Shown: positions 97 to 63,767 of the stretch, piece by piece | Layout of the letters: each line of letters starts with the position of its first letter | Numbering within the stretch: the first letter of the stretch is position 1 | Assembly: GCA_043801965.1 (NCBI GenBank) | Contig: JAZDLN010000022.1 | Span: forward strand, 9,989 to 73,988 | Reading direction: 5' to 3' | Length of the DNA stretch: 64,000 bases | Source: Candidatus Falkowbacteria bacterium | GTDB lineage: Bacteria; Patescibacteriota; Patescibacteriia; Patescibacteriales; UBA12075 | Notes under the pieces: model-generated | Databases searched by the model: none | Told to the model about the DNA's origin: nothing | What the model saw: the letters and a program-made list of their open reading frames with translations, nothing else | Program-made: the position numbers and the translations under genes

Positions 97-114
97 TTTA
101 TGTAAAATTATTTT

Positions 115-3144: not shown

Positions 3145-3531
3145 TTATTCTTTTTCAGAAGCGGTTTCTTCCGCGATTTCCTCTTCTTCTACTTTAATCT
3201 CGTCTTTGGCCATTAATTCCTGCTCCAACCTTAATCTTTCATCTTCTTCTTCAATAAGTTTTTTGGCTATTTTTAATTTTAACCGTTTAGCGAGATCGGC
3301 AAATGATTTTTCATCCTCCTTTTGGAGATATTTTAAGAGTTTTCTCCTCTCGCCGACCTTTTTTAAAAGACCGCGGCGGGAAGAATGGTCGTGTTTATGT
3401 TTTTTAAGGTGTTCGGATAATTCTTTGATCTCCTCGGTAAGGATAGCGATCTGCACCTGGGTTGAACCGGTGTCGTTATCATGCACCTTGAACTTGCTGA
3501 TGATCTTTTGCTTGATTTTTTTGTCTAACAT
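3145..3531 (-). CDS. rpsO: 30S ribosomal protein S15 with a ~40-aa acidic C-terminal extension
   Basis: Start chosen at MLDKKIKQK (internal Met of the track ORF). TGSTQVQIA...HLKKHKHDHSSRRGLL is the S15 signature. Tail is AKKLIEEEDERLRLEQEL...EKE. Confidence 0.9.
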   Translation of the reverse strand: MLDKKIKQKIISKFKVHDNDTGSTQVQIAILTEEIKELSEHLKKHKHDHSSRRGLLKKVGERRKLLKYLQKEDEKSFADLAKRLKLKIAKKLIEEEDERLRLEQELMAKDEIKVEEEEIAEETASEKE

Positions 3532-3668
3532 TGGTTTTTTCCTTATCCGAGAAATGGAAAAAATCATTAATCCCAAGAACCAAGATAAGGTAAATTTAGA
3601 ATAATTTCTTAATAATATTATTTACCCTTAAGATTAGCATATAGTTAAAAAAAAAGCAAGCATAACTC

Positions 3669-3697
3669 TTTGACAAAACCGTTCATTTTTGCTAAGG
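3669..3697 (+). promoter_or_regulatory. Sigma-70-like promoter candidate
   Basis: TTGACA (3669-3674), 17-nt spacer, TAAGGT (3692-3697), ~65 nt upstream of the 3761 ATG. Confidence 0.4.
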
Positions 3698-3760
3698 TAA
3701 AGTCAGTTTAAAGAACTTTAACAACGCGCGATTAATTTAATAACAAACGGCGAGGTTAAG

Positions 3761-6836: not shown

Positions 6837-6878
6837 GTAGAGACGCGATTAATCGCGTCTCTACATCGCGTCTTTACG
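6837..6878. repeat. GTAGAGACGC-family perfect palindrome plus an extra partial arm
   Basis: gtagagacgcgattaatcgcgtctctac (28 nt, perfect) followed by atcgcgtctttac, a third degenerate arm. Confidence 0.85.
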
Positions 6879-7930: not shown

Positions 7931-8009
7931 TCCGCCTATTAGCGGATCACTTAATTGCCCTCACCCGGTCCGCCGGTTGGCGGACCACCCTCTCCGATTC
8001 CGGAGAGGG
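7931..8009. repeat. Cluster of three GC-rich hairpins
   Basis: tccgc-ctatta-gcgga (7931-7946), ggtccgcc-ggtt-ggcggacc (7967-7986) and ccctctccg-attc-cggagaggg (7988-8009). None has a T-run. Confidence 0.7.
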
Positions 8010-8104: not shown

Positions 8105-8176
8105 GGCGCCATCGTCTAGTGGTTAGGACATGAGGTTTTCATCCTCACAACCGGGGTTCTATTCCCCGTGGCGTCA
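8105..8176 (+). tRNA. tRNA-Glu (anticodon TTC)
   Basis: Hand-folded cloverleaf: acceptor ggcgcca/tggcgtc, anticodon arm tgagg-ttTTCat-cctca, T arm cgggg-ttctatt-ccccg. 72 nt, no encoded CCA. Confidence 0.9.
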
Positions 8177-8255
8177 CAATAAACAAAAAGCGGCCGTGGC
8201 CGTTTTTTGTTTCTTATTTACAAAATAACAAATGAATGCTATTTTTTTAATTACT

Positions 8256-8306: not shown

Positions 8307-8361
8307 CGAGACTCAAATTTTTTTTGTTTAGTGTTTATATTTAAGTCTATATTTTAAGACC

Positions 8362-9402
8362 ATGTTAATACTGGGAATAGAGACAAGTTGCGATGAAACC
8401 GCCGCGGCCGTGGCCAGCGGAAAAAACGGTAAAGTGGAAATTTTATCAGACGTGGTTTCCTCGCAGATAGAAATACATAAAAAATACGGCGGCGTCGTAC
8501 CGGAGGTGGCCGCGCGCGAGCATGTCTTAAATATTTTGCCGGTCATTGATAAGGCTTTAAAAAAATCCGGAATCCCCACCCTTGCAAAAGGCGGGGGGGT
8601 TGACGCCATCGCCGTAACTATCGGACCGGGTTTGATCACGTCCCTGGTTGTGGGAATAGAAACCGCTAAAGTTTTGTCGTGCGCCTGGGGCGTGCCCGTT
8701 ATCGGGATTAACCACATAGAGGGGCATGTATACGCGAATTTCATAAATCAGAAAAAGAAGCTTGAATTTCCGGCCATGATTTTAACCGTGTCTGGCGGAC
8801 ACACCATGCTTGTCCTTATGCGCGCGCACGGCAAGTATAAAACGATCGGCGAAACGCGCGATGACGCGGCCGGAGAGGCGTTCGATAAAGCGGCGAAGCT
8901 TATGGGAATCGGCTACCCCGGCGGACCCGCTATAGCCGTTCAAGCCGTTAAATGTCAAATGTCAAAGGTCAAAGGTCAAATTAAACTGCCCAGACCAATG
9001 ATAAATTCCGGGGATTTTGATTTTTCTTTTTCCGGATTAAAAACAGCGCTCTTGTATGATTTAAAGAAGGATAAAAACTGGGAGAAGCGGATTCCGGAAT
9101 ACTGTCATGAATTCCAGCGGGCGGTAGTTGATACGCTGGTCTTTAAAACCGTTAAGGCGGCAGAAAAATATAAAGCGAAAACCGTCATGCTCGCCGGCGG
9201 GGTGGCGGCTAATACGGAATTGCGGACACAGCTTGAAAAAGCGGTCGCGGAAAAACTAAAAACAGCTTTCGTTATGCCGGATTTAAAGTACACAACGGAT
9301 AACGCGGCTATGGTCGCTTCAGCCGGATATTTCCGCGCGCTGAAAAAAGACTTTACGCCTTGGGAAAAATTGCGGGTAGATTGTAATTTAGAATTAAAGT
9401 AA
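8362..9402 (+). CDS. tsaD: tRNA N6-adenosine threonylcarbamoyltransferase TsaD (Kae1/Gcp family)
   Basis: 346 aa. LGIETSCDETAAA, GINHIEGH, GYPGGP and SFSGLKTA motifs. Confidence 0.95.
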   Translation: MLILGIETSCDETAAAVASGKNGKVEILSDVVSSQIEIHKKYGGVVPEVAAREHVLNILPVIDKALKKSGIPTLAKGGGVDAIAVTIGPGLITSLVVGIETAKVLSCAWGVPVIGINHIEGHVYANFINQKKKLEFPAMILTVSGGHTMLVLMRAHGKYKTIGETRDDAAGEAFDKAAKLMGIGYPGGPAIAVQAVKCQMSKVKGQIKLPRPMINSGDFDFSFSGLKTALLYDLKKDKNWEKRIPEYCHEFQRAVVDTLVFKTVKAAEKYKAKTVMLAGGVAANTELRTQLEKAVAEKLKTAFVMPDLKYTTDNAAMVASAGYFRALKKDFTPWEKLRVDCNLELK

Positions 9403-12612: not shown

Positions 12613-12760
12613 GGCGTTTCCCCTGTTATTTAGTTTTTAATGAGCCTGTTTTGTTTCTTATATTAAGTTATACACATCTAAAAAAGTCTTTCTGTCATTC
12701 TAACGCATTATTAATATATCGGCAACGCGGCTGTCAAAGGGCCTAAAAACGCGCAAACGC

Positions 12761-12789
12761 GTAGAGACGCCCCGACGGGGCGTCTCTAC
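12761..12789. repeat. GTAGAGACGC-family palindrome
   Basis: gtagagacgccccg-a-cggggcgtctctac. Flanked by a 12-bp direct repeat ATTAATATATCG at 12710-12721 and 12796-12807. Confidence 0.85.
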
Positions 12790-12812
12790 GGTGGAATTAA
12801 TATATCGCTGAA

Positions 12813-15821: not shown

Positions 15822-15903
15822 GCGGACGTGGTGAAACTGGTAGACACGCTAGCCTTAGGAGCTAGTGGAGAAATCCGTGTGGGTTCAAGTCCCTCCGTCC
15901 GCA
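15822..15903 (+). tRNA. tRNA-Leu (anticodon TAG)
   Basis: Class II cloverleaf: acceptor gcggacg/cgtccgc, anticodon arm ctagc-ctTAGga-gctag, long variable arm, T loop ttcaagt. Confidence 0.9.
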
Positions 15904-15925
15904 CTATTTTTTAAGTTGTGGGCTT

Positions 15926-15998
15926 CCGCTCAGCCCCGAGAATTCGGGATGAGCGGATCCGCTCGCGAAGCCGAGCGGACAAGTCCCTCCGTCCGCAC
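15926..15998 (+). repeat. Two GC hairpins followed by a 19-nt duplicate of the tRNA-Leu(TAG) 3' end
   Basis: ccgctca...tgagcgg (15926-15956), tccgctcg-cgaagc-cgagcgga (15958-15979), then caagtccctccgtccgcac (15980-15998), identical to 15886-15904. Confidence 0.8.
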
Positions 15999-16083
15999 AA
16001 ACAAGCTAAAAGTAAACATAAACCGCGCGTACCGCCGTATACGCGGGAATAAAGGCGATAACCGCGAAACCCTGGGGGGATGA

Positions 16084-50391: not shown

Positions 50392-50793
50392 ATGAAAAAA
50401 ATATTATTCGTCTTAATTCCGATGATATTGGTTTTGTTGCCGGTTTTTTCTTTTGTCTTGACCGCCCACGCTCAATCCGAGGCTGACGTTATGCTTTGGG
50501 GCGGATTAGAGGGAGACGTCCAGGCCACTACCGGTTTAGGCAATACCGATCCGCGGGAAATGGCGGCCCGGGTGGTCAATATCATGTTGGGCTTTATCGG
50601 CATTATCGCCGTTATTATTATTTTATTGGGCGGATTCAAATGGATGACGGCCGCCGGCAACGAGGAGAAGGTGGATGAGGCTAAAAAACTCATCGGCTCC
50701 GGGGTGATCGGTTTGATAATATTATTGGCCGCTTTTGCGCTGGCCCAATTTATCCTGAACGCTCTTTACGGAGCTACCGGAGCTATCGGATAA
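50392..50793 (+). CDS. VirB2/TrbC-like pilin paralogue 1 (major-type)
   Basis: 133 aa. Signal peptide ...LTAHA/QS, GLGNTDPRE, GGFKWMTAAGNEEKVDEAKK between two TM helices. GGGGGTG SD. Confidence 0.8.
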   Translation: MKKILFVLIPMILVLLPVFSFVLTAHAQSEADVMLWGGLEGDVQATTGLGNTDPREMAARVVNIMLGFIGIIAVIIILLGGFKWMTAAGNEEKVDEAKKLIGSGVIGLIILLAAFALAQFILNALYGATGAIG

Positions 50794-50885
50794 TTTTAAA
50801 AGTGATATATATTTGACGAGGGAAAACCGGAAAAAAGCACCAGAAATCGGATATTTTTCCCAAGTCCATAGAAAGGGGGTGAAAT

Positions 50886-51287
50886 ATGAAAAAAATAATG
50901 TTCGTTTTAGCGATTTTTACTTTAACGGTATTACCGATCTTTTCTTTTTGTTTGACCGCTCACGCCCAGTCGGACGCCGACAATATGCTTTGGGGCAATT
51001 ATGAAACCAACGTCCAGGCAGCGACCGGATTAGGAAACACCGACCCCCGGCAGATGGCCGCTCAAGTCGTTAATATCATGTTGGGATTTTTGGGCATAAT
51101 AGCCGTAGTGATCATATTGTTGGGCGGATTCAAATGGATGACGGCCGCCGGAGACGAGGCGAAAGTTGATGAAGCCAAGAAATTGATCGGTGCCGGCGTT
51201 ATCGGCTTGGTCGTGATCTTAGCCGCGTTCGGAGTCGCCCAATTTGTTATCAACGCCTTATACGGAGCCACTGGCGCTACCGGTTAG
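50886..51287 (+). CDS. VirB2/TrbC-like pilin paralogue 2 (major-type)
   Basis: 133 aa, near-identical architecture to paralogue 1. GGGGGTG SD. Confidence 0.8.
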   Translation: MKKIMFVLAIFTLTVLPIFSFCLTAHAQSDADNMLWGNYETNVQAATGLGNTDPRQMAAQVVNIMLGFLGIIAVVIILLGGFKWMTAAGDEAKVDEAKKLIGAGVIGLVVILAAFGVAQFVINALYGATGATG

Positions 51288-51330
51288 TATTATATAATTA
51301 CCTGCTACAGCCTTTGATAAATCAGCGGAT

Positions 51331-51395
51331 GTCCGATTTAAAAAGCGGACTCCGCCGCCATAAACACGAAAGATGCATCGCGTTTATGGCGGCGG
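51331..51395 (+). promoter_or_regulatory. Conserved double RNA hairpin between pilin genes 2 and 3
   Basis: gtccg...cggac (51331-51350) and ccgccgccataaacacg-N10-cgcgtttatggcggcgg (51352-51395). No T-run. Confidence 0.55.
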
Positions 51396-51481
51396 AAACA
51401 AAAAGGAATTAGCGGTTTCTGTTTAAGGTTATAGTTAGCATTGATTTTATTTTTTATTATTCAATAGATTGGGGGTGAAAT

Positions 51482-51883
51482 ATGAAAAAAACTTTTTTCG
51501 TTTTAGCTTTATCCGTTTTGGTGATTTTGCCGGTTTTCGCTTTCGGTCTGACCGCTCACGCGCAAACAGCCGCCGACAACATGCTTTGGGGGGGCTTTGA
51601 GGGTAACGTACAGACCGCTACCGGTTTGGGTAATACCGACCCCAGAGAGATGGCTGGACAGGTGGTCAATATACTCTTAGGATTTTTAGGTATTATAGCG
51701 GTTGTGATCATACTTTTAGGCGGATTCAAGTGGATGACCGCGGCGGGAGACGAGGGCAAGGTTGATGAGGCCAAGAAGCTTATCGGCGCCGGTATTATCG
51801 GCCTGGTCGTTATTTTAGCGGCCTTCGCTATCGCCCAGTTCGTGATCAGCGCTTTGTACAACGCCACGAACGCCACCGGTTAA
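51482..51883 (+). CDS. VirB2/TrbC-like pilin paralogue 3 (major-type)
   Basis: 133 aa. C-terminus ALYNATNATG. GGGGGTG SD. Confidence 0.8.
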   Translation: MKKTFFVLALSVLVILPVFAFGLTAHAQTAADNMLWGGFEGNVQTATGLGNTDPREMAGQVVNILLGFLGIIAVVIILLGGFKWMTAAGDEGKVDEAKKLIGAGIIGLVVILAAFAIAQFVISALYNATNATG

Positions 51884-51909
51884 ATATTTATGTTATTCGA
51901 TCAGCGGGC

Positions 51910-51968
51910 GTCCGCTTTAAAGCGGACTCCGCCGCCATGAACACGATAATTCGCGTTTATGGCCGCAG
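51910..51968 (+). promoter_or_regulatory. Conserved double RNA hairpin between pilin genes 3 and 4
   Basis: Perfect palindrome gtccgctttaaagcggac (51910-51927) and ccgccgccatgaacacg...cgcgtttatggccgcag (51929-51968). Confidence 0.55.
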
Positions 51969-52031
51969 AAAGACCGTTAATCGGAGAGGTTAGTTTCTAA
52001 TTAATTGTTAATAAATAGATAGGGGGTGAAT

Positions 52032-52433
52032 ATGAAAAAAACATTTTTCGTTTTAGCGCTTTCAGCTCTGGTTATATTGCCGGTTTTCGCTTTCGGTCTG
52101 ACCGCTAACGCGCAATCAGCCGCCGACAACATGCTTTGGGGCGGTTTTGAATCTAACGTTCAGACGGCAACGGGTTTGGGGAATACCGACCCTAGGGAAA
52201 TGGCCGGTTCGGTAATTAATATATTTTTGGGATTCTTGGGTATCATTGCCGTATTATTGATCCTGTTCGGCGGTTTTAAATGGATGACGGCCGCCGGAGA
52301 CGAGGGCAAGGTTGACGAGGCTAAAAAGCTGATTGCCGCCGGTATTATCGGTTTGGTCGTTATTTTAGCGGCCTTCGCTATCGCCCAGTTCGTGATCAAC
52401 GCTTTGTACAACGCTACGAACGCCACGGGTTAA
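52032..52433 (+). CDS. VirB2/TrbC-like pilin paralogue 4 (major-type)
   Basis: ATG 52032 (MKKTFF) chosen by analogy with the paralogues and the GGGGGTG SD. Shares a 44-nt identical 3' stretch with paralogue 3. Confidence 0.8.
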   Translation: MKKTFFVLALSALVILPVFAFGLTANAQSAADNMLWGGFESNVQTATGLGNTDPREMAGSVINIFLGFLGIIAVLLILFGGFKWMTAAGDEGKVDEAKKLIAAGIIGLVVILAAFAIAQFVINALYNATNATG

Positions 52434-52475
52434 TCGTCTTTAGCAAAGATCTTTTACGTTTTTTTATACGTGGAT

Positions 52476-52545
52476 ACCCGGTTTTTCTAATCGGGTTCCA
52501 CTGTTATGGGCGTGAAGCAGATTCGCGTTCATGCCCGTAACAGTG
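52476..52545 (+). promoter_or_regulatory. Conserved double RNA hairpin between pilin genes 4 and 5
   Basis: acccg...cgggt (52476-52496) and cactgttatgggcgtgaa...ttcgcgttcatgcccgtaacagtg (52499-52545). The two imperfect positions are G-U wobbles only on the plus-strand RNA. Confidence 0.55.
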
Positions 52546-52566
52546 TTCTAATCATATAGATAATTT

Positions 52567-52953
52567 ATGTTTTCCGTTAAATCCCATTTTGTCGTATTTA
52601 TACTCTTAAGCCTGGTTTTCCTGGCGTTTATCCAGACGGTTTCCGCGGACGGAGGGAAAGAAGCCTTGGATGGCCTTAATATAACCGCCAAAGAAGGCTA
52701 CGGCACAGTACCGCGCGGTACGGTTTCGGCTACCATAGGCAAAATCGTCGGTTCGATACTTGCATTTACCGGTATTATCTTTTTTCTTTTAGTGATTTAC
52801 GGCGGTTTTACCTGGATGATGGCCAGGGGCAACGAGCAGGAAGTCGCAAAAGCGAAGAGTCTGATCGAACAGGCGGCCATTGGTCTTATTATAGTTTTAG
52901 CGGCTTACGCGCTTACCGCTTTTATAGGCCGGGCGCTAACCTCCCCGACCTAA
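52567..52953 (+). CDS. VirB2/TrbC-like pilin paralogue 5 (divergent)
   Basis: 128 aa. GGFTWMMARGNEQEVAKAK core. Unrelated mature N-terminus. No SD. Confidence 0.7.
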   Translation: MFSVKSHFVVFILLSLVFLAFIQTVSADGGKEALDGLNITAKEGYGTVPRGTVSATIGKIVGSILAFTGIIFFLLVIYGGFTWMMARGNEQEVAKAKSLIEQAAIGLIIVLAAYALTAFIGRALTSPT

Positions 52954-52987
52954 AAACGATCCGGATTTTGTCCGGCGGCAGTTTATT

Positions 52988-53392
52988 ATGAAATACGGCC
53001 AAATATTTTTTACAATATTTTTTTTCTTGTGGCTGCTGTCAGCGATTCCGGCGGTTAACGATTGTTCGGCGTATAGTTTTATGGATGAGAGCGGCATCAA
53101 GGAAACCGGACAGGCTACCGGCCATGCTTCCATAAGTCTGACCCAAAGATCCCCGGCACAGATGGTCGGAATGATAATCAAGGTTCTCTTGTCCTTTCTT
53201 GGGGTCGTTTTCCTTATAATAATGATCTACGCCGGTTATTCCTGGATGATAGCCCGGGGCAACGAGCAGGTCGCGGAAAAAGCTAAGGGCACGATCGTTA
53301 ACGCCACGATCGGCCTTATAATAATAATGCTCGCCTATGCCATAACCGTTTTTATCGGCGGGCAATTAGCCGGAAGCACCGCGGTCGGTTAG
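52988..53392 (+). CDS. VirB2/TrbC-like pilin paralogue 6 (divergent)
   Basis: 134 aa. AGYSWMIARGNEQVAEKAK core. No SD. Confidence 0.7.
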   Translation: MKYGQIFFTIFFFLWLLSAIPAVNDCSAYSFMDESGIKETGQATGHASISLTQRSPAQMVGMIIKVLLSFLGVVFLIIMIYAGYSWMIARGNEQVAEKAKGTIVNATIGLIIIMLAYAITVFIGGQLAGSTAVG

Positions 53393-53437
53393 TGATTTTT
53401 TAAAAAACCGGATATATAAAAAGCGAACGAATCACGT

Positions 53438-53845
53438 ATGATTAATCTTTTGAATATCAATAAGTTCATGATTACCGCGGTAATTTTGCTGGCGGTTTTT
53501 ATAGTTCCGTCCGCCGAAGCCGCAAATTTAGGCGATGCGTTTAAGCAACCCTTAAACGACGTGGCCGGATCAACGGGCGCCGGCTACAGAAGCGACGCGG
53601 ATCCGGCCGTACTTATAGGAAAGGTGGTCCAAGCCGCCTTATCTTTCGTGGGCGTAGTATTCCTAATATTGATGATCTATGCCGGATATACGTGGATGCT
53701 CGCCCGGGGCAACGAGCAGCAGGTGGATAAAGCCAAGAATCTGATCACGGCCGCTGTTATCGGCTTGATCATTGTCCTGGCCGCATACGCCATAAGTTAT
53801 TTCGTGTTAAGCCAGATCGGCGCGGAAACCATGCAGGAGGTTTGA
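53438..53845 (+). CDS. VirB2/TrbC-like pilin paralogue 7 (divergent)
   Basis: 135 aa. AGYTWMLARGNEQQVDKAK core. No SD. Confidence 0.7.
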   Translation: MINLLNINKFMITAVILLAVFIVPSAEAANLGDAFKQPLNDVAGSTGAGYRSDADPAVLIGKVVQAALSFVGVVFLILMIYAGYTWMLARGNEQQVDKAKNLITAAVIGLIIVLAAYAISYFVLSQIGAETMQEV

Positions 53846-53873
53846 TGTCCGAATAATATTTATACTTTGATCT

Positions 53874-54275
53874 ATGATGAATAAAATAAAAAAATATCGT
53901 CATTTGTTTTTTCTTTTTTTCTTATTGGCGGTATTGATCGTCCCCTATTTTGTTTTCGCCGCTACGCCGTTGGATAATCTTGAAAAAGTAGGAACCGAAG
54001 GCGCCGGTTACGCCCCCTATGAGGATGGAGAATATAATAATACCTTCATAACCGTGGTGGGCGTTATAATTAAGGCCTTTTTGGGCTTATTGGGCGTAAT
54101 ATTCATCGTATTGATCTTGTACGGCGGTTATAACTGGATGACCGCCGCCGGCGAAGAACAAAAAGTAACGAAAGCGAAAGACACTATCAGCCGGGCCCTT
54201 ATCGGCCTTTTGATAGTAGTCGGTTCATTCGCCATCTGGCAATTCATTTCCAACGCTATCATTTTAGAAATATGA
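53874..54275 (+). CDS. VirB2/TrbC-like pilin paralogue 8 (divergent)
   Basis: 133 aa. GGYNWMTAAGEEQKVTKAK core. No SD. Confidence 0.7.
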   Translation: MMNKIKKYRHLFFLFFLLAVLIVPYFVFAATPLDNLEKVGTEGAGYAPYEDGEYNNTFITVVGVIIKAFLGLLGVIFIVLILYGGYNWMTAAGEEQKVTKAKDTISRALIGLLIVVGSFAIWQFISNAIILEI

Positions 54276-54682
54276 TAATTAAGACCATAAAAAAAATATT
54301 CAGGTATGGATTAGGCGCCCTTTTCCTAATCCCCTTTTTCGGAGCTAGGGCCGCGCTGCTTACAGGAGATACCGCGGACAGGATAATAGGTGCCGGCGAT
54401 AGTCTGGGTACGGCGGCCGGTTTCGCTTCCGGCCAGAACCCGGGGAGCATTGTGGCCACGATAATTACAGGTTTTTTAAGCCTACTAGGCATTATATTTA
54501 TCGTGCTTATAATATACGGCGGCTATAGCTGGATGACGGCCGCCGGTGAGGAGCAAAAAGTAGAAAAAGCCAAAGACACGATCAAGCGCGCCGTAATAGG
54601 CCTGATCATAATAGTGGCCGCTTATTCGATCACTTACTTTGTTTTTACCGCCCTGGACGCCGCGATGAGCGGAAATCCCTAG
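54272..54682 (+). CDS. VirB2/TrbC-like pilin paralogue 9 (divergent)
   Basis: 136 aa. GGYSWMTAAGEEQKVEKAK core. 4-nt ATGA overlap with paralogue 8. Confidence 0.7.
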   Translation: MIIKTIKKIFRYGLGALFLIPFFGARAALLTGDTADRIIGAGDSLGTAAGFASGQNPGSIVATIITGFLSLLGIIFIVLIIYGGYSWMTAAGEEQKVEKAKDTIKRAVIGLIIIVAAYSITYFVFTALDAAMSGNP

Positions 54683-55535: not shown

Positions 55536-55701
55536 GGCCTGGTAGCCAAGCGGTAAGGCAATCCCGACGCTTCGGGACAAAACTGCCGCATATATAAGCT
55601 GATTTTAAGCACAATCATGGCCTGGTAGCCAAGCGGTAAGGCAATCCCGACGCTTCGGGACAAAACTGCCGCATATATAAGCTGATTTTAAGCACAATCA
55701 T
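55536..55701 (+). repeat. Two perfect 83-bp tandem units, each holding a tRNA-Cys 5' fragment, a 16-nt palindrome and an AT-rich spacer
   Basis: Units 55536-55618 and 55619-55701 are identical. Each has 26 nt matching the tRNA-Cys 5' end, TCCCGACGCTTCGGGA replacing cagtttg, then caaaactg matching the tRNA, then 33 nt of unrelated sequence. Confidence 0.95.
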
Positions 55702-55773
55702 GGCCTGGTAGCCAAGCGGTAAGGCAACAGTTTGCAAAACTGTCATGCACCGGTTCAAATCCGGTCCAGGCCT
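55702..55773 (+). tRNA. tRNA-Cys (anticodon GCA)
   Basis: Acceptor ggcctgg/ccaggcc, anticodon arm acagt-ttGCAaa-actgt, T arm accgg-ttcaaat-ccggt. 72 nt. Confidence 0.9.
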
Positions 55774-55784
55774 CAAATTAAATT

Positions 55785-55806
55785 CCACCTCTTAGGGTGG
55801 TTTTTG
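55785..55806 (+). terminator. Intrinsic terminator after tRNA-Cys
   Basis: ccacc-tcttag-ggtgg hairpin plus T5. Confidence 0.7.
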
Positions 55807-56001
55807 TTTTAAGTAATTTGAGCTGGTACTCGAATATGTCGGGTATGCAAAATAAAAAAGGGCAGTATAAGGGTATGTATAATGAACCCTTAAGACTAAA
55901 GATGATTTACTGTAGAGTCCAAGTATACATAGACAAACAGTAAACAGTCATAGGTTATGATTTTATGGTAAGTCTATAGATATTTGGACTAAAAAAAGGA
56001 G

Positions 56002-56033
56002 TTATCCACATGATTTTCCACAACTGTGCATAA
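56002..56033. promoter_or_regulatory. Cluster of three DnaA-box-like 9-mers
   Basis: TTATCCACA (56002-56010, perfect consensus), TTTTCCACA (56014-56022) and the reverse TTATGCACA (56025-56033). Flanked by TAAGTCTA-N7-TTGGACT units at 55969-55991 and 56044-56068. Confidence 0.45.
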
Positions 56034-56697
56034 ATATCTTTCTTTAAGTCTAAATGCTTTTGGACTTAAATGTGGATTGTCAATAACGATGTGTATGCCT
56101 CTAATATTTTATCTAATAATAAATGATAAATATTCTAAGACCTAGGATTGACTGAAGCTGTTTTGTGTGTTATATTAATAATAGGTTAATAAACAAAAAA
56201 GTTATTTACAATTTAAGAAAAATTTACCTAAATATCTGCTTTAAAAGTACGGGCGGATAAAATTGGTTAAATTTTCCTGTTTTCTACTTATCATTTCGGC
56301 CAGATCCGACATGGTCAGACAAAAACAAAAACAAAAAAAAGGTAGTGCTGATTATAATATTATAAATAATCGGTATTTACCGCTTGATTGGTAGAAAACA
56401 TGCTTTTAAGTCGGAAAAAAGCTCCAAAAACTCCGTGATCAGGGATTTTCTTGCTCATATCTCGTATATGGACAATTAATAAGATCCGGGGCTTGTGGCT
56501 CAACATTAGTGACCTCATCTATTTACATAAGAAGGGGGCCCAGTTGGGCCACTTTTTAATTTGTATTTATACTTCAGATGATAAATTTTACGGATAGCAT
56601 ACATTTATCGAAAGCTTGCCAAAATTGTCGCGGCATTATATAATAATAATAGATTTTCCTGTGAATAAGGAATTTTTTTAACAGCTAATAATTGTTT

Positions 56698-57066
56698 ATG
56701 ACAACAGAAGACAATAAATTAGATTCAGAATCTTTAGAAAAAATAAAAAAGGAGTTAACGGAGAAAAGGGAGCAAATACTCAAAGACCTGGAAGAGGTTT
56801 CGACCGGAGACAGGGTAAAATTTCCGGATTATGGCGATAAGCTTGATGAAAACGCCCAGGAAATCGATGAATATACGACCAATCTGGCCACCGACAAGGT
56901 GCTGGAAGAGTCTCTTCGTGACATAGAGAACGCCCTGGATCGGATAGAAAAGGGTGTTTACGGAGTATGCAAATACTGCCATCAGCCGATCGGAAAAAAG
57001 CGCCTCCTGGCCAGACCGGTCGCTTCAGCCTGCGTGCCCTGCAAAACGAAATTGCAGAATGGTTAA
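56698..57066 (+). CDS. DksA/TraR-family C4 zinc-finger protein
   Basis: CKYCHQPIGKKRLLARPVASACVPC four-Cys finger preceded by a coiled-coil region. ATG 56698 preferred over TTG 56692. Confidence 0.8.
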   Translation: MTTEDNKLDSESLEKIKKELTEKREQILKDLEEVSTGDRVKFPDYGDKLDENAQEIDEYTTNLATDKVLEESLRDIENALDRIEKGVYGVCKYCHQPIGKKRLLARPVASACVPCKTKLQNG

Positions 57067-57084
57067 AGTACGAATTTTTCCGCT

Positions 57085-57534
57085 ATGTTTTTATCGAATT
57101 TACATAAAATAGACCGGTATTTTTTACCGGCTGTTTTTTTTGCCGCTCTGGACAGGTTTTTAAAGAGTGTGGCCGTAAGACAGACAGAATTCAGCCTGAT
57201 CGGTGATTTTTTTAAGTTCAGTTTCGCGGAAAATCGTTATATCGCTTTTTCCTTACCCCTGTACGGAAATTTTCTGAATATATTAATTCTGGCGATACTT
57301 TTAGGTTTAGCGTACTATTTCTTAAATTTAATAAGAAAAGACCAGCCTCGGGAGGCCGGTCTGATCCTTATTTTAATCTTCGGTGCCGCCAGTAATTTAT
57401 TTGATCGTCTGAAATTCGGTTTTGTCGTTGATTATTTAGATCTCCGTTATTTTACGGTTTTTAATATAGCCGATATCATGATAGTGGCCAGTGTCGGGTT
57501 ATTGATTTATTACAGTTTCAAAAAGGACGTTTAA
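57085..57534 (+). CDS. lspA: Lipoprotein signal peptidase (signal peptidase II)
   Basis: 149 aa, 4 TM. GAASNLFDR and FNIADIMI catalytic-Asp motifs. Confidence 0.85.
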   Translation: MFLSNLHKIDRYFLPAVFFAALDRFLKSVAVRQTEFSLIGDFFKFSFAENRYIAFSLPLYGNFLNILILAILLGLAYYFLNLIRKDQPREAGLILILIFGAASNLFDRLKFGFVVDYLDLRYFTVFNIADIMIVASVGLLIYYSFKKDV

Positions 57535-58169
57535 GCGGCCTTTTTCTCTAGGTCTCCAGCGCTAACTTTTTTTATCTGAAAAATTTTAGGGTAATACGGT
57601 TTTCCAGGCTCCTTGCCGTGTAATCGCAGGGCGACCGCCTTGATATCGCCCATATTTATATCTCCGTTAACTACTCTGTAATATTGAGCGTCATTAGTAT
57701 ATCCGTCTTTGGGGTTTACTATATTAATATTATCTTTCCAAAATCCAATAGCCATATTAAACGGCAACGCCGAAACCATATTTTTCGTATCGCCAGCGTA
57801 TGCGATTGACGTCTCCCAACGAGTGGCCACATTCGGTTTCTTTGATTCAATTTTCAAAATATTATTTTTGTCTGCCAACAAAGATAATAATTCAACCGGA
57901 TTGCTACCACGCCACAGTAGCCCATCTGTGCCGACTTCAACCTCTTCCAAGCGATAATCAACAGGCAATAATTCATTTATTGCTTTTTTTATTTCCAGGT
58001 AACATTCGTCAATTTCCTCCTGATCATCGCTTCCCTCGATCTCCTGATAGCTTTTATTTTTTATTTCGTTGATTCTGTTTAATAAATTATTTATTTTTCG
58101 CTGGCCACGTTTAGTCTCGTCCAGGGACGCGCCAGAAAAAAGGTCGGTAAATTTTTCTTTTTTATTCAT
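57531..58169 (-). CDS. Hypothetical protein
   Basis: 212-aa ORF. No motif recognised. Confidence 0.55.
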   Translation of the reverse strand: MNKKEKFTDLFSGASLDETKRGQRKINNLLNRINEIKNKSYQEIEGSDDQEEIDECYLEIKKAINELLPVDYRLEEVEVGTDGLLWRGSNPVELLSLLADKNNILKIESKKPNVATRWETSIAYAGDTKNMVSALPFNMAIGFWKDNINIVNPKDGYTNDAQYYRVVNGDINMGDIKAVALRLHGKEPGKPYYPKIFQIKKVSAGDLEKKAA

Positions 58170-58172
58170 ATA

Positions 58173-58598
58173 TTAATATTTTATTATTCTTTGATTGTTT
58201 TTATCGTGCTTTATTTTTATGAATTTGGTTTTTTTCGGCAGAACCTTTTTTATTTTATCGGCCCATTCGATAACAGTAAGCGTGTCCGGGCGATTTATGT
58301 ACTCGTCCGCTCCGATATCGGAAATTTCCCGGGTGCTTTTTATACGATAAGCATCGATATGCGCGATATTCCTGATCGTTTCGGTATTACGTGTCTTATA
58401 GATCTTCATCAGAACGAAAGTCGGGCTGTTGACCGTGCGTTTTACGCCAAGCGTTTTTCCCAGCACTCCGGTAAAAAAGGTTTTCCCCGCGCCCAGGTCT
58501 CCGATAAGCCCCAGGACATCCCCGCCCCGTAAATCCCGGGCGTATTTTCGGGCGAAAGCCGACATCTCTTTTTCTGATTTTATGATAATTTCCGGCAT
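58173..58598 (-). CDS. tsaE: tRNA t6A biosynthesis ATPase TsaE
   Basis: 141 aa. GDLGAGKTFFTG P-loop, SPTF, HIDAYR. Confidence 0.9.
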   Translation of the reverse strand: MPEIIIKSEKEMSAFARKYARDLRGGDVLGLIGDLGAGKTFFTGVLGKTLGVKRTVNSPTFVLMKIYKTRNTETIRNIAHIDAYRIKSTREISDIGADEYINRPDTLTVIEWADKIKKVLPKKTKFIKIKHDKNNQRIIKY

Positions 58599-58805
58599 AT
58601 TGCTATTCTAGCTTATTTTTTCGGAAAAATAAAGAGAAATTAAAAACCCTACCAAAAATAAAAAAGAGGCTAAAGCATTAACCTCTTGCTAAGTTCCTTA
58701 TAACGCTGTTTCCATGGATAGAAGTTTACACGGTGAGCTGTTTTTTTCGTAAGTTATCCAGCCTCGCTTTCTAAGCGGATCGCATAGCAATATGGGGGAA
58801 AATAA

Positions 58806-59558
58806 CTATTTGTTTTGCGGTAAAGATGCCCACATTAGTTCAAAAAATTCCCGGAACATTTTTATGATATGTTTGTTCTCAATGGTAAGGGCCATGATGG
58901 GCGTGCCGACCAAGTGTATGAAAATTCGATCGGGTACGATACGGAGAACGGTCGAAAGCTGGGTGGTGGCCGGCAGAATTTTTATGTTCATACCCATGGC
59001 GCTTTGAATTTGTTTGTACTTTCCTGCTTCTTCACTTTGGGTGAGCAAAAGTCTTTTTTTAACACCCATCTTAGCTTCTCGTTCAAAAATCTTGGTAAAA
59101 AATACTTCATCAAGGTCCAAAGTTTTTTTAGTATCACCCACAACCAGGATTTCGTCGCGCAGGCTCATTTTTTGTGAAAATTCGGTATAGATATTTTTGA
59201 TCGCTTCCAGACCTTCGTAATAGCGGATCACGCTGTCTTTGGCATCTTCGCGGAAAAGCGACATAAAATCAGGCAGGGTTTCTTTGAAACGCTGTCTTTT
59301 TCGTTCCAAGATTTTGTCCAATTGTTCCGGGCTCTCGGCCACGTACTGTTTTTTCCAGCCTTTCATATCAATACGCATCAACCCCAGGTTTTTCAGGGGA
59401 TCAATCAGGGAGTGTACAGTAGTTCGTTTCATATTGGCTTCGCCGGCAATCTTGGTTATTGAGCTGGGGCCCAAAGATAAAGCGCTCAGGTACACCTGAG
59501 CCTCATTTTCAGACAAACCCAAATCTATCAAAACCTTTTTTAAGTCCTTATTTTTCAT
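58806..59558 (-). CDS. TrmB-family transcriptional regulator
   Basis: 250 aa. N-terminal LGLSENEAQVYLALSLGPSSITKIA winged-helix motif typical of TrmB. Confidence 0.8.
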   Translation of the reverse strand: MKNKDLKKVLIDLGLSENEAQVYLSALSLGPSSITKIAGEANMKRTTVHSLIDPLKNLGLMRIDMKGWKKQYVAESPEQLDKILERKRQRFKETLPDFMSLFREDAKDSVIRYYEGLEAIKNIYTEFSQKMSLRDEILVVGDTKKTLDLDEVFFTKIFEREAKMGVKKRLLLTQSEEAGKYKQIQSAMGMNIKILPATTQLSTVLRIVPDRIFIHLVGTPIMALTIENKHIIKMFREFFELMWASLPQNK

Positions 59559-59786
59559 AATAATTGAAAAAATTTACAATTTTGACGAAATTTTTGTCGA
59601 CATAATTTATTCTAACATAAAACAAAAAATAATACAAATATATAGTATTGCCGACAAATATGACAAATATTCAGTATTATGACATAATGTAGTTATAAAG
59701 TCAAAAGAACATTGAAAACTAAAACCACCTTAATAAAATCCATCGGGGATTTTGGATGGGCGGTTACATTTAAAAGGAGAATAGTC

Positions 59787-60326
59787 ATGAATAACAGAGA
59801 GGAAGCAAAAAAATTCTTAGAGGAAGTTCTTGAAGTGATTAGGAAAAAGGATCGAGGAATTTTTTTCGAAAACAACGAAGTCAACCCAGAAAAAAGCATA
59901 TATCTTTTGGATAATGGTGAAGTTTGTGGGATGATTTATGGCCTTTCCGTCAGAAAGGGAGAGGAATGGATGGATTGGGGGTATGAAAAGCGGCCCCTAA
60001 ACCACATGCTGGTTCTGAACGCTATTGCGATAGTTCTTAAAAAGCGTGGAGTGAAAGTGTTCAAAGACGGGAGCAAGATAGTAATAGTACAAAAACATGA
60101 TACCGAGACAAAGCACCCAAACATTCACATGCTGTATGCCAGGTCGGGTTTTATGGGGGGAGTGCATGGAAGCCGGGCTTCCATATTCGCAGACGCGCTT
60201 GCCAATGAATACAGATATGATAGTGAGGCAGATACTTTGATTTGCCGCCCGAGGGTTTGGCCAGGTGACCCGAAAGAACCGGAATATATTGTTCCTTTCT
60301 TCTCTTTAACGGAAGAAGAAATTTAA
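59787..60326 (+). CDS. Hypothetical protein
   Basis: Start at MNNREEAKK with AAGGAG SD. No motif recognised. Confidence 0.55.
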   Translation: MNNREEAKKFLEEVLEVIRKKDRGIFFENNEVNPEKSIYLLDNGEVCGMIYGLSVRKGEEWMDWGYEKRPLNHMLVLNAIAIVLKKRGVKVFKDGSKIVIVQKHDTETKHPNIHMLYARSGFMGGVHGSRASIFADALANEYRYDSEADTLICRPRVWPGDPKEPEYIVPFFSLTEEEI

Positions 60327-60333
60327 TTTCATA

Positions 60334-60367
60334 GAGTCAAGCGCTGTACAACGCTTGGCTCTTTTTC
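60334..60367 (+). terminator. Intrinsic terminator
   Basis: gagtcaagcg-N8-cgcttggctc hairpin plus T5. Confidence 0.7.
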
Positions 60368-60380
60368 TTTTATGTGAAGT

Positions 60381-60412
60381 AAAACAAAAGACTGTTCTTT
60401 CTGGAAACAGTC
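60381..60412 (-). terminator. Intrinsic terminator closing the rplS-tRNA-GIY-YIG transcription unit
   Basis: On the minus strand, a gactgtt-tccagaaag-aacagtc hairpin followed by ttttgtttt. Confidence 0.65.
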
Positions 60413-60420
60413 CCCGTATG

Positions 60421-60499
60421 TGGACGCGCAATCCCGAAGCGTCGGGAGAACCTAGGACCCCCTCGGTGTAAATCCCGAAGCGTCGGGACTCTAACCAGC
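60421..60499 (-). pseudogene. Partial tRNA-Val copy (3' ~60 nt) with two 16-nt palindromes substituted
   Basis: Sense strand: gctggttagag[TCCCGACGCTTCGGGA]tttacaccgagggggtcctaggttc[TCCCGACGCTTCGGGA]ttgcgcgtcca. The palindromes replace cacctcg and gaatcc of the intact tRNA. Confidence 0.85.
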
Positions 60500-60751
60500 C
60501 GCTTTTGATCCGCACAATTTTTTATAAAATTTTTTGCTTTTCTGATTTTTTAAAAATTTTTCCTGAATCATGGCCTCTGACCTGGTGTCATATTTTTCTT
60601 GATAAACAAGATGCCATCCGCCGTTATATTTAGAAGTATAAACAGAAAGCCGGTTTTGGTGTTCAAAAATTCTTCTTCTTAAATTATCGGTTTGTCCAAT
60701 ATAAAATTTATCGTATTTTTTGTTGTACAAAATATAAACAAAAAATTTCAT
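60491..60751 (-). CDS. Small GIY-YIG nuclease-family protein (YhbQ/UPF0213-like)
   Basis: 86 aa. FVYILYN...KFYIGQTDNLRRRIFEH ... E (GIY-YIG, Arg, Glu pattern). The ATG lies 2 nt after the tRNA-Val 3' end. The last codons and stop lie inside the tRNA-Val remnant. Confidence 0.85.
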   Translation of the reverse strand: MKFFVYILYNKKYDKFYIGQTDNLRRRIFEHQNRLSVYTSKYNGGWHLVYQEKYDTRSEAMIQEKFLKNQKSKKFYKKLCGSKAAG

Positions 60752-60752
60752 G

Positions 60753-60826
60753 TGGACGCGCAAGGATTCGAACCTAGGACCCCCTCGGTGTAAACGAGGT
60801 GCTCTAACCAGCTGAGCTACGCGTCC
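60753..60826 (-). tRNA. tRNA-Val (anticodon TAC)
   Basis: Sense strand: ggacgcg ta gctc agctggtta gagc a cctcg ttTACac cgagg gggtc ctagg ttcgaat ccttg cgcgtcc a. One U-U mismatch in the T stem. Confidence 0.9.
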
Positions 60827-60859: not shown

Positions 60860-60946
<87 letters not shown>

Positions 60947-60992
60947 TTTGTTTGTGATCAATGTTTATAATTAGTTTGGATATTCTCTCCCC

Positions 60993-61098
60993 GGACTTGC
61001 CCCGTCATCCGACGGGGTCCGCCTCGGGCGGAAACCTTCACGAGGTTGCCCCATCCCGCCCTCCGGCGGGACGTGTTCAATTATTCCACCACGTCCGC
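60993..61098 (-). pseudogene. Degenerate tRNA-Leu(GAG) copy with GC hairpins replacing the anticodon arm and inserted in the T arm
   Basis: Sense strand: gcggacgtggtggaa..gaacacg [tcccgcc-ggag-ggcggga] tggggcaacctcgtgaaggtt [tccgcc-cga-ggcgga][ccccgtc-ggat-gacgggg] caagtcc. The 3' acceptor strand is missing. Confidence 0.75.
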
Positions 61099-62328: not shown

Positions 62329-62733
62329 TTATTTTGCGTTTTTATCCGGCGCGTGCACGCCGAAAGTATTGCCTTCGGTGTCTATAAAATATCCTTGCCA
62401 GGCCATCCCGGGAAGGGCGAATTTAGGCATCGCTTCCCGGCCGCCGGCTTTTTTTATCTTTTCGGCGGTTATGTCGAAATTTTCCACCACTACGCTGCAG
62501 ACATACGCGTTAGTGCCGCATTCCGGCGGCGGCGTTCCGGCGGGGCGTTTAAGGAGGCCGCCGTTAATACCCGGTTCCCGGCTATCCTCCTCGGCGGTCA
62601 TGACCATCCAGTATTCAAAACCGAGATCTCCTCCTTTGTATTTTTCGATATTCCAGCCGAATACCTGGCGGTAAAATTCCGCGGCCTGTTCGGGATTGTC
62701 CGCCTGTATTTCGAAATGTATTATTCTGTTCAT
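62329..62733 (-). CDS. VOC-family (glyoxalase/bleomycin-resistance fold) protein
   Basis: 134 aa. IIHFEIQADNPEQAAEFYRQVFGW ... GYFIDTEGNTFGVH. Confidence 0.85.
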   Translation of the reverse strand: MNRIIHFEIQADNPEQAAEFYRQVFGWNIEKYKGGDLGFEYWMVMTAEEDSREPGINGGLLKRPAGTPPPECGTNAYVCSVVVENFDITAEKIKKAGGREAMPKFALPGMAWQGYFIDTEGNTFGVHAPDKNAK

Positions 62734-62794
62734 ATTATTAATTTATAGATTTAATTATATTGAAATTTTATATTAATATGATTAACGGATAATT

Positions 62795-62822
62795 AAAAAA
62801 GCGGGGCAATTCCCCGCTTTTA
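62795..62822. terminator. Bidirectional hairpin terminator
   Basis: gcgggg-caatt-ccccgc flanked by an A-run and a T-run. Confidence 0.7.
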
Positions 62823-62863
62823 AAATTTTATTTAAGATTTTCTGTACCAAATTTTTATTAAAA

Positions 62864-63262
62864 TTATTCGGTGGTTCGTCCGTCGAATTCCGCTTCGTTA
62901 GCGAGCGCTTCTTTTTTCGTGGCGCGCACGATACCGTCCTCGTGATGCGCCGGAGAATAGATCGTATAAAGCTTCAAATCTTCGGAATCGGACGCGTTTA
63001 TGACGTTGTGTTCCGCGCCGGCGGGCACGACTATGGCCGTGCCGTCGACGACCTCGTATTCATTCCCGTCAATAACGCACTTCCCTTTGCCCTTTTCGAA
63101 GCGGAAGAACTGATCATTGTCAAAGTGGGTTTCAGAGCCGATCTCTTCGCCCGGCTTAAGGCTCATAAGCACCAGCTGGCTATTTTTTCCGGTGTAAAGG
63201 ACTTTCCGGAAGTTTTCGTTTTCCAGGGTGTCTTTTTCGATGTTGGAATTAAATCCCTTCAT
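62864..63262 (-). CDS. Cupin-domain protein
   Basis: 132 aa. G.E.G.E.H and VPAGAEHNV cupin motifs. Confidence 0.75.
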   Translation of the reverse strand: MKGFNSNIEKDTLENENFRKVLYTGKNSQLVLMSLKPGEEIGSETHFDNDQFFRFEKGKGKCVIDGNEYEVVDGTAIVVPAGAEHNVINASDSEDLKLYTIYSPAHHEDGIVRATKKEALANEAEFDGRTTE

Positions 63263-63332
63263 AAATTTGGATTCAATTAATTATTTATTAATATAATTTA
63301 AAAATATCATTAATACATTAAAAATAAATTAA

Positions 63333-63353
63333 AAGACTCCTTTTTTGGAGTCT
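63333..63353 (-). terminator. Hairpin terminator
   Basis: agactcc-tttttt-ggagtct. On the minus strand it is followed by a T-run. Confidence 0.6.
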
Positions 63354-63383
63354 CTGTTGATAAAAACCGCCGGAAGCTAGGAT

Positions 63384-63767
63384 TTATTCGGATATTATCC
63401 GGCAATCGTTTTCAGTTTTTTGGATATATTTGTGATAATGAGGGCAGTCTGCGGCTAATTTTTCCATCCATTCTTCGAGGGTAATATTTACGTCCATCGC
63501 GTAACCTTTTTGATAAAAAAGGTAGCGGGTTTTAATTGAAGGATCGTTGGCCGTCGTGATAACCCGGTATATATTGCCTGAACCGGCCCTGATCATGAAC
63601 GTTATTCCGTTTTCATCGATTATCCGGATTATATCCGTATTTCCTCCGTCGCATTCTATCTTGGCGACAAGAGCGGATTTTTTTTCTTCTGAAATTCCGT
63701 CAGAGGCGATTATGCCGACGGCGGCGACAGCGATTGCTAAAGAAACGAATAATTTGCCTCTTTTCAT
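63384..63767 (-). CDS. Hypothetical secreted protein
   Basis: 127 aa. Signal/anchor MKRGKLFVSLAIAVAAVGIIA. No motif recognised. Confidence 0.55.
   Translation of the reverse strand: MKRGKLFVSLAIAVAAVGIIASDGISEEKKSALVAKIECDGGNTDIIRIIDENGITFMIRAGSGNIYRVITTANDPSIKTRYLFYQKGYAMDVNITLEEWMEKLAADCPHYHKYIQKTENDCRIISE

Follow-up and report, generated by a model that had tools for sequence, protein, structure and literature searches.

tRNA genes, partial copies and hairpins

The 64,000-nt stretch analysed here (hereafter the window) lies on contig JAZDLN010000022.1 (positions 9,989 to 73,988) of the metagenome-assembled genome GCA_043801965.1 of a “Candidatus Falkowbacteria” bacterium, and its gene content is typical of Patescibacteria (Candidate Phyla Radiation, CPR). 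Our subject is a family of short GC-rich hairpins seated in partial copies of tRNA genes, together with a small GIY-YIG nuclease gene that stands between an intact tRNA-Val gene and one such copy. ARAGORN and Rfam called five intact tRNA genes, the only known RNA families that Rfam gave in the window: tRNA-Glu (8105-8177), tRNA-Leu(TAG) (15822..15904, plus strand), tRNA-Cys(GCA) (55702..55774, plus strand, 68.2 bits), tRNA-Val(TAC) (60752..60826, minus strand) and tRNA-Leu(GAG) (60860..60946, minus strand). The partial tRNA copies are the primary structure, a point missed by the preliminary description of this DNA, and the hairpins occupy two structural hot spots within them.

The exact 16-nt palindrome TCCCGACGCTTCGGGA occurs four times in the window, twice on each strand, at precisely the positions first reported, where shuffled sequence predicts 0.02 matches even with up to two mismatches allowed. 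As DNA it folds into a 6-bp stem with a 4-nt loop (-5.3 kcal/mol). All four copies lie within a partial tRNA copy and in tRNA-sense orientation, as had been claimed, and the window's other intergenic DNA holds no exact copy. By itself, the uniform orientation would arise by chance with a probability of about 0.25, as the four copies represent just three independent contexts. Of 74 perfect, GC-rich hairpins found across the window, eight lie within tRNA pseudo-copies, which make up 459 nt or 0.72% of the window (binomial p = 7e-8).

The tRNA-Val locus combines these features with the nuclease gene. An open reading frame (ORF) of 86 aa (60491..60751, minus strand) begins with an ATG 2 nt past the discriminator base of the intact tRNA-Val, and its last three codons and TAG stop are encoded by the first fragment of a 5'-truncated tRNA-Val pseudo-copy running from the D-loop to the 3' end (60419..60499, minus strand). 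In this remnant, the D-loop fragment ‘gctggttagag’ is followed by one TCCCGACGCTTCGGGA copy (60473..60488, minus strand) replacing ‘cacctcg’ (nt 25-31) at the D-arm/anticodon-stem junction, then by nt 32-56 unchanged, a second copy (60432..60447, minus strand) replacing ‘gaatcc’ (nt 57-62), i.e. the 3' half of the T-loop and the start of the T-stem 3' strand, and the unchanged 3' end. Every retained segment is 100% identical to the intact gene, which points to recent duplication or gene conversion. The sole terminator-like site of the unit, an intrinsic terminator at 60387..60415 (minus strand), follows the pseudo-copy and not the intact tRNA-Val.

At the tRNA-Cys locus, two 3'-truncated pseudo-copies form an 83-bp tandem repeat of 100% identity upstream of the intact gene (55536..55618 and 55619..55701, plus strand), the second unit abutting it. 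Each consists of tRNA-Cys nt 1-27, TCCCGACGCTTCGGGA (55562..55577 and 55645..55660, plus strand), ‘caaaactg’ (nt 35-42) and a 33-nt spacer, the palindrome standing for ‘cagtttg’, that is, the 5' strand of the anticodon stem and three loop nucleotides. Alignment of the spacer to the native flanks did not exceed the null. Imperfect palindromic repeats of the form AGTCYA...TRGACT occur 3' of tRNA-Cys both in the window (55900-56080) and in a syntenic relative (locus L283, 7780-8010).

Related hairpins accompany the remaining loci. A degenerate copy upstream of tRNA-Leu(GAG) (60985..61098, minus strand) carries tcccgccggagggcggga (61054-61071) in place of the anticodon arm and two further hairpins (61018-61032 and 61000-61017) inserted in the T-loop after GGTT. 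Downstream of tRNA-Leu(TAG), an ORF-less module (15905..15999, plus strand) opens with an 11-nt spacer and a T-stem fragment, continues with hairpins at 15925-15957 and 15958-15979 and closes with a second copy of the T-loop-to-3'-end part (15980-15999). Both sets had been described before and were recovered here. The further claim that all five tRNA loci are tied to the hairpin family holds in part: a cluster of three GC-rich hairpins does lie about 100 nt upstream of tRNA-Glu (7931-8009), but no partial tRNA-Glu copy was found near it, alignment scores staying at the shuffled level. A reading of the fragments as split, trans-spliced tRNAs was rejected because the 5' strand of the anticodon stem is absent and an intact gene is always present.

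A minimal GIY-YIG nuclease

The 86-aa protein matches the GIY-YIG domain PF01541 with 51.3 bits against a cut-off of 22.6 (E = 1.5e-13). The catalytic residues of I-TevI are Y6, Y17, R27, H31 and E75; across 17 homologues, Y6, Y17, H31 and E64 show no variation and R27 is retained in at least 90%. By domain match and catalytic residues it fits the GIY-YIG superfamily and is a predicted nuclease. Its nearest solved structures by profile are the UPF0213 proteins 1zg2 (2.3e-10) and 1ywl (3.5e-10), followed by SLX1 4xlg (1.7e-4), which places it, as far as profiles can tell, in the UPF0213/YhbQ-Slx1 branch, kin of structure-specific nucleases. Membership in phage homing-endonuclease, NCBIfam or defence families was rejected, as matches were weak and confined to the motif. 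The protein is a single domain with no extra DNA-binding domain, ORFs of the family span 75-110 aa, and 3778 clusters at 50% identity match at E <= 1e-10. It is identical to an NCBI ‘Candidatus Falkowbacteria’ protein; exact-protein look-ups of the window proteins returned nothing. Structures of UPF0213/YhbQ proteins have been solved, and we know of no established role for them.

A conserved architecture across phyla

The layout of the tRNA-Val locus recurs far beyond the window. Nuclease homologues at 59-69% identity share it in their contigs: tRNA-Val(TAC), tRNA-Val(CAC) or tRNA-Ala(TGC) abuts the ATG, and 3' of the stop codon follow a D-arm fragment, a TCCCGAG-NN-CTCGGGA hairpin and the remaining tRNA, often with a hairpin-bearing 5' fragment upstream. 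A wider scan with one genome per species yielded 78 loci at 39-66% protein identity, of which 72 had callable ORFs, from Patescibacteria, Bacteroidota, Ignavibacteria, Acidobacteriota, Chloroflexota and others. The order is stereotyped: an intact tRNA gene comes first, then a gene for a GIY-YIG protein of about 85 aa, then a partial copy of that tRNA broken up by hairpins. Upstream, certain loci have tandem 5' tRNA fragments with hairpins as well. The ORF is free-standing, outside any intron or intein, and in 56 of the 72 cases a conserved tRNA gene on the same strand ends no more than 150 nt upstream of it. These tRNAs cover 13 isotypes, and the gap to the ORF has a median of 33 nt and is at most 5 nt in 13 loci. 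The link between hairpins, partial tRNA copies and a GIY-YIG gene, first noticed in the window, is thus general.

Collinear tRNA pseudo-copies follow the ORF in 48 loci and are interrupted by a hairpin in 38 of them, after the D-arm or at the anticodon stem in 20 and in the T-loop in at least 15; in the remaining ten the hairpin lies mostly at the ORF/pseudo-copy boundary. The interruption takes several forms, namely replacement of 6-7 nt, exchange of the 17-nt anticodon arm for a hairpin of 16-18 nt, longer replacement and pure insertion, as in Chitinophagaceae, where a double hairpin is inserted exactly between G53 and T54. Extra tRNA ends show a polarity: of 65 loci, 21 have additional 5' ends upstream and one has them downstream, whereas 40 have additional 3' ends downstream and one has them upstream. 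At least nine loci hold two or three tandem ORF copies, and in L016 the intact tRNA follows the ORF and the plugged copy precedes it.

These comparative data bear directly on whether the window pattern could be due to chance or faulty assembly. Its source is a metagenome-assembled genome, and short tandem repeats are prone to mis-assembly. However, the same architecture appears in independent ENA, JGI and NCBI assemblies of different phyla, and the very low expectation for TCCCGACGCTTCGGGA speaks against coincidence; the comparison already refutes this explanation, whose probability is negligible.

The insertion points also recall integrases. The partial copies might be attachment-site scars of a tyrosine integrase acting in trans, the palindrome being the core site and the GIY-YIG gene the cargo. 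Fragments of tRNA genes classically arise when an integrase inserts DNA into the anticodon loop or T-loop and the 3' part of the tRNA is duplicated (bioRxiv 10.1101/2022.07.05.498093), and the hot spots here fall in the same tRNA regions. Yet there is no integrase in or beside the window cassettes; cassettes of this kind measure just 0.1-0.4 kb; 5' fragments accumulate upstream, which is not a product of integrase chemistry; 6-bp arms around a 4-bp spacer fall well below the length of known core sites; and hairpin positions vary, as do the deletion sizes at them (0, 6-7, 17 or 37 nt). We regard integrase scars as a very unlikely origin.

Several observations concern individual loci. ARAGORN calls plugged remnants tRNA-Ser(TGA) or tRNA-???, for example in L055 (~4190-4275) and L017 (3255-3340). 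In L015, an ORF of 282 aa (3283-4131) separates the GIY-YIG gene from the displaced 3' fragment of the resident tRNA-Val and may be insert cargo. Both the window and L004 have a 204-aa ORF beside the cassette, but the two are unrelated, and their interpretation as conserved cargo was rejected. Further, L004 carries an ORF-less 80-nt repeat (gaaaaggggtYgggaaaacgggag...gcgaagcgac) after tRNA-Pro and after a tRNA-Leu remnant (6020-6105 and 8330-8415); each copy precedes a tRNA T-loop-to-3'-end duplicate, making this a second type of mini-insert with the same habit.

Empty and occupied sites, and probable replacement of resident tRNAs

The neighbourhood L19-tRNALeu(GAG)-tRNAVal(TAC)-TsaE-LspA-DksA is conserved and allowed orthologous sites to be compared. 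Presence/absence polymorphism was found: the window and L001 are occupied in the same manner, L281 is an empty site in which L19, tRNA-Leu, tRNA-Val, a terminator and TsaE follow one another with no insert, and L283 holds an ORF-less remnant 3' of tRNA-Val, made up of a spacer, two hairpins and a T-loop-to-3'-end duplicate. Occupancy also differs between tRNA genes, with tRNA-Cys bare in L283 and, in L004, tRNA-Val(TAC) bare and Val(CAC) occupied.

Moreover, some cassettes seem to have brought their own tRNA. In L001, L004 and L015, the upstream 5' fragment and the downstream 3' fragment have mutually complementary acceptor strands (GGACGCA/TGCGTCC, GGATGTA/TATATCC and GGGCGGC/GCCGCCC, respectively). 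The intact tRNA between them has a self-complementary acceptor stem differing by 2-4 bp from the outer fragments, and in L004 its T-stem is likewise different and perfect. As the outer fragments pair together and not with the inner tRNA, these alignments are most simply read as a resident tRNA gene interrupted by an incoming segment that brought the nuclease ORF and a tRNA of its own.

Hairpin variants and their distribution

TCCCGACGCTTCGGGA is the form taken in this genome by a family of short, GC-rich modules, hairpins of 15-22 nt seated in redundant partial tRNA copies. In the TCCCG...CGGGA family, the inner stem pairs co-vary between lineages (GAG/CTC, GGT/ACC, GAT/ATC, GCC/GGC, GAC/GTC), and one and the same variant occurs in unrelated remnants of a single genome: in the window at tRNA-Cys and at both the anticodon and T-loop sites of tRNA-Val, in L004 at Val and Leu, and also in L125. 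The exact 18-mer CCCCGTCGGATGACGGGG is found in the T-loop of the window's tRNA-Leu(GAG) copy (61000-61017) and in the T-loop of the L283 tRNA-Val remnant, tRNA-sense in both. No flanking homology joins these two sites, which argues for hairpins being copied as discrete modules. The sequences thus share the marks of mobile hairpin elements: the hairpins are short and GC-rich, nearly identical copies stand at non-homologous sites, and relatives differ in where they carry an insertion. Up to four hairpins were counted in one pseudo-copy (L044). An exact TCCCGACGCTTCGGGA match was absent from the other 283 loci; 17 exact matches in viral sequences lie in coding sequence (e.g. terminase-like genes), are consistent with chance and were set aside.

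An exclusive association of the hairpins with tRNA genes was rejected by a metagenome scan with TCCCGAGNNCTCGGGA, in which tRNA remnants held about 13 of the 139 matches listed (~10%). None of 68 viral TCCCGAGNNCTCGGGA matches lay near a tRNA or in a tRNA remnant. The perfect palindrome TCCCGAGTACTCGGGA, with TA at the centre, is strongly over-represented and accounts for about half of the 139 metagenome matches listed; it sits at the apex of unrelated repeat families in L086-L205 (L088/L163, L090/L102/L134/L160 and a ‘cgcaatgac’ group).

This distribution lends weight to the main rival explanation, namely that the hairpins are independent small palindromic invaders with their own mobilising activity and a preference for loops and junctions of stem-loop-forming DNA, for which neutral tRNA pseudo-copies would be permissive landing pads; the GIY-YIG cassette would supply the pseudo-copies and nothing else. 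The TCCCGAG-NN-CTCGGGA core mostly lies outside tRNA remnants, at the apex of other hairpins, of repeats resembling miniature inverted-repeat transposable elements and of terminators, with the palindromic TA centre so frequent. Hairpin remnants often have no nearby nuclease gene, several different hairpins may pile up in one remnant, as in L044, and mobile hairpin elements whose mechanism is not known are established in mitochondria (PMC2800124, PMC4478555). On the other hand, in GIY-YIG loci the ORF is almost universally separated from the 3' part of the tRNA by a hairpin, always at one of two positions, and this constancy holds across loci whose proteins are just 40-66% identical. In addition, all exact copies in the window are in remnants, with none in its other intergenic DNA, and no candidate transposase was seen among the ten ORFs next to the Cys and Val loci. 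Overall, we consider independent invaders unlikely, though the leading alternative.

The hairpins might instead act as RNA, stabilising, processing or terminating the tRNA-nuclease transcript or blocking harmful tRNA-like folds. In favour of such a role, the remnant belongs to the transcription unit, where it stands after the ORF and before the real terminator, the stems co-vary, and the 17-nt anticodon arm is exchanged for a hairpin arm of 16-18 nt in L026, L037, L039 and L040. A terminator role was rejected: lacking a T-run behind them, the hairpins do not reach a terminator score, and the terminator lies 3' of the remnant. With one acceptor strand missing, remnants have no tRNA-like fold to be disabled, and identical variants at unrelated sites require a copying mechanism whatever their function. 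Further, the seventh base pair is conserved and the unpairable palindromic centre is over-represented; since both cannot be used in a folded hairpin, this appears to favour a process at the DNA level. A role as RNA is accordingly among the less likely explanations, as are integrase scars, and we think it improbable.

Other palindromes were noted along the way. At window positions 70-99, AAAACAA-TCCCGAAGTTTCGGGA-TTGTTTT forms a bidirectional terminator-like hairpin with a 13-bp stem whose core differs from TCCCGACGCTTCGGGA by 2 nt; the same core is found in L051. Two long palindromes (6837-6864 and 12760-12790) have a common stem, GTAGAGACGC/GCGTCTCTAC, and different centres, and their 5' GTAG recalls repetitive extragenic palindromic (REP) sequences. 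On a GC-rich, 135-kb viral or plasmid-like contig, L210 (9950-10520) contains about 17 copies of GGTCCCG(A/G)G-NN-C(T/C)CGGGACC at 30-60-nt spacing; this array, which counted 10 motifs in the viral scan, was rejected as part of the tRNA system, being an iteron-like repeat in GC-rich DNA.

A proposed homing-type cassette on tRNA genes

We rank first, at about an even chance of being correct, the explanation that the locus carries a homing-type selfish cassette built on a minimal GIY-YIG nuclease, with hairpin plugs in spare tRNA copies. The partial tRNA copies would be by-products of this widespread cassette, whose ~85-aa nuclease of the YhbQ/UPF0213-Slx1 branch is encoded directly 3' of a tRNA gene and presumably co-transcribed with it; for the CPR clade we infer that the nuclease mRNA can have no source other than the tRNA transcript. 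The cassette would keep one tRNA copy intact, in some loci importing its own, and whatever it displaced of the resident gene would stay behind as a pseudo-copy. To begin the cycle, the nuclease would break the DNA of the tRNA gene at the D-arm/anticodon-stem junction and in the T-loop, perhaps by reading tRNA-shaped DNA and not sequence. Recombinational repair from an occupied locus, with tRNA sequence as homology arms, would then copy the cassette into empty alleles, and renewed cutting of the intact copy would generate tandem or nested arrays. In redundant copies, the break sites might finally be filled by a hairpin copied from an existing one, which would remove the cut site and mark the boundary of homology. 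A cassette of this kind would explain where the ORF sits and why there are split resident genes, empty alleles, arrays, a range of tRNA isotypes and two hot spots.

Several points weigh against this explanation. It gives no account of the means by which a constant 16-nt sequence could enter a break in the absence of flanking homology. Beside the ORF there is always an intact tRNA that presumably can still be cleaved, so the classical immunity of an occupied allele is not evident; a nicking or weakly expressed enzyme could possibly reconcile the two. The 5'/3' polarity of the extra tRNA ends would also result from tandem duplication of any other origin, provided that one breakpoint fell within the gene. 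In many loci, intact and pseudo-copies still share unbroken matches of 40-68 nt, which indicates that the hairpins do not efficiently prevent deletion by recombination, and a role as homology breakers was judged weak. Hairpin remnants are common with no GIY-YIG gene in cis (tRNA-Cys and tRNA-Leu(TAG) in the window, Leu in L004, Val in L283), and two of the 139 metagenome hairpin matches listed lie within 300 nt of such a gene. Finally, the hairpin core also caps unrelated palindromic repeats and terminators and is therefore not specific to this system.

A bolder proposal, which we hold tentatively and regard as rather unlikely, is that the ~85-aa Slx1/YhbQ-type nuclease recognises the shape of tRNA-gene DNA and that the 15-22-nt hairpins are copied strand-specifically into its cut sites. 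The target might be a cloverleaf or cruciform on a displaced or single strand, and the hairpins would enter the enzyme's cuts at helix junctions of redundant tRNA copies. Recognition by shape would allow one tiny enzyme family to colonise at least 13 tRNA isotypes across phyla, and the hairpins, if templated in this manner, would be the smallest known templated mobile DNA modules.

Should the cassette explanation hold, bacterial chromosomes harbour a class of minimal selfish elements (at least 3,700 nuclease clusters at 50% identity) that is very common yet has been overlooked, living on tRNA genes, sometimes replacing the resident tRNA and building arrays of disabled copies. It would give UPF0213/YhbQ proteins a testable function, explain the hairpin-laden tRNA fragments that mislead tRNA finders and offer enzymology a candidate shape-guided nuclease. 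Likewise, it would provide a tractable bacterial model for the spread of short hairpin modules, comparable to mitochondrial GC clusters.

Other features of the window

One window ORF matches the LigD primase-polymerase domain (E = 7.6e-86), which suggests end-joining repair in a small genome. Nine tandem paralogous ORFs of about 133 aa lie at 50392-54682, with more elsewhere (e.g. 62329-63767), and 12 window ORFs match PF18895 (T4SS_pilin).

Comparison with known systems

The preliminary description knew of no earlier account of the combination, and the full-text literature searched gave no description of an architecture of tRNA, mini-nuclease and hairpin-plugged copy. Its components have precedents in SegB, in mitochondrial endonuclease ORFs, in mitochondrial hairpin elements and in the tRNA fragments made by integrases. 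In Allomyces, the mobile endonuclease ORF atp6-ORF360, as reportedly described by Paquin et al. in 1994, carries a replacement 3' end that displaces the resident one. Fungal mitochondrial ORFs of this kind are said to share with the present loci the duplication of a gene end around the ORF, a host gene kept functional by a foreign or hybrid end and a resident end left downstream; they differ in their organellar, protein-coding targets, in having no regular junction hairpin and in belonging to other endonuclease families.

With integrative elements that target tRNA genes, the loci have in common the insertion points in the anticodon or T-loop region, the flanking of the insert by one complete and one partial tRNA copy and a direct repeat of the tRNA 3' part around it. 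Unlike them, the inserts here are 0.1-0.4 kb long, come with upstream 5' fragments and have hairpins inside the partial copy, and those in the window hold the 86-aa GIY-YIG ORF or no ORF, with no tyrosine or serine integrase among them.

The analogy with REP/RAYT-type or Rickettsia palindromic elements, drawn in the preliminary description, is reasonable as a statement of how the modules work, since they appear to be copied between non-homologous sites, and, as with REP sequences and REPINs, seemingly in a strand-specific manner. Membership in either group is not supported. There is no GTAG head, no dispersal of copies through the intergenic DNA of the window and no inverted doublet, the two tRNA-Val hairpins being direct repeats; moreover, no RAYT (Y1/HUH transposase) was seen among the ten ORFs flanking the Cys and Val loci or the 25 Pfam families listed for the 74 window ORFs. 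Rickettsia palindromic elements differ in size and context, measuring 100-150 bp and lying in frame in protein genes, whereas the present hairpins are 15-22 nt long and sit in non-coding tRNA remnants.

Another parallel is offered by mitochondrial GC clusters, the double-hairpin elements of Allomyces and the repetitive hairpin-forming elements of sponges, which are polymorphic between relatives for insertion by a mechanism that is not known (PMC2800124, PMC4478555, PMC3787672). These, too, are short GC-rich hairpins in AT-rich genomes with near-identical copies at non-homologous sites. They are, however, organellar and found mainly in spacers, whereas the hairpins here cluster at two structural positions of tRNA pseudo-copies and are linked to a nuclease cassette.

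For the nuclease, the comparison is with SegB of T-even phages, a GIY-YIG enzyme encoded beside tRNA genes that cuts the tRNA region and is co-inherited with the flanking tRNA genes (PMC2330249). SegB has about 220 aa including a DNA-binding part, whereas the protein described here is a bare catalytic domain of about 85 aa from the YhbQ/Slx1 branch that matches phage homing-endonuclease families weakly; it is encoded in a cellular chromosome and not in a phage, next to stable hairpin-interrupted pseudo-copies. Both genes nevertheless stand between or next to tRNA genes. In phage T6, SegB drives tandem amplification of a tRNA+segB unit whose junction joins the segB 3' end to the tRNA 5' part (PMC13096335), and the ORF/D-arm junctions and tandem ORFs found here resemble that junction, just as the 5'/3' polarity of the extra tRNA ends matches that amplification.

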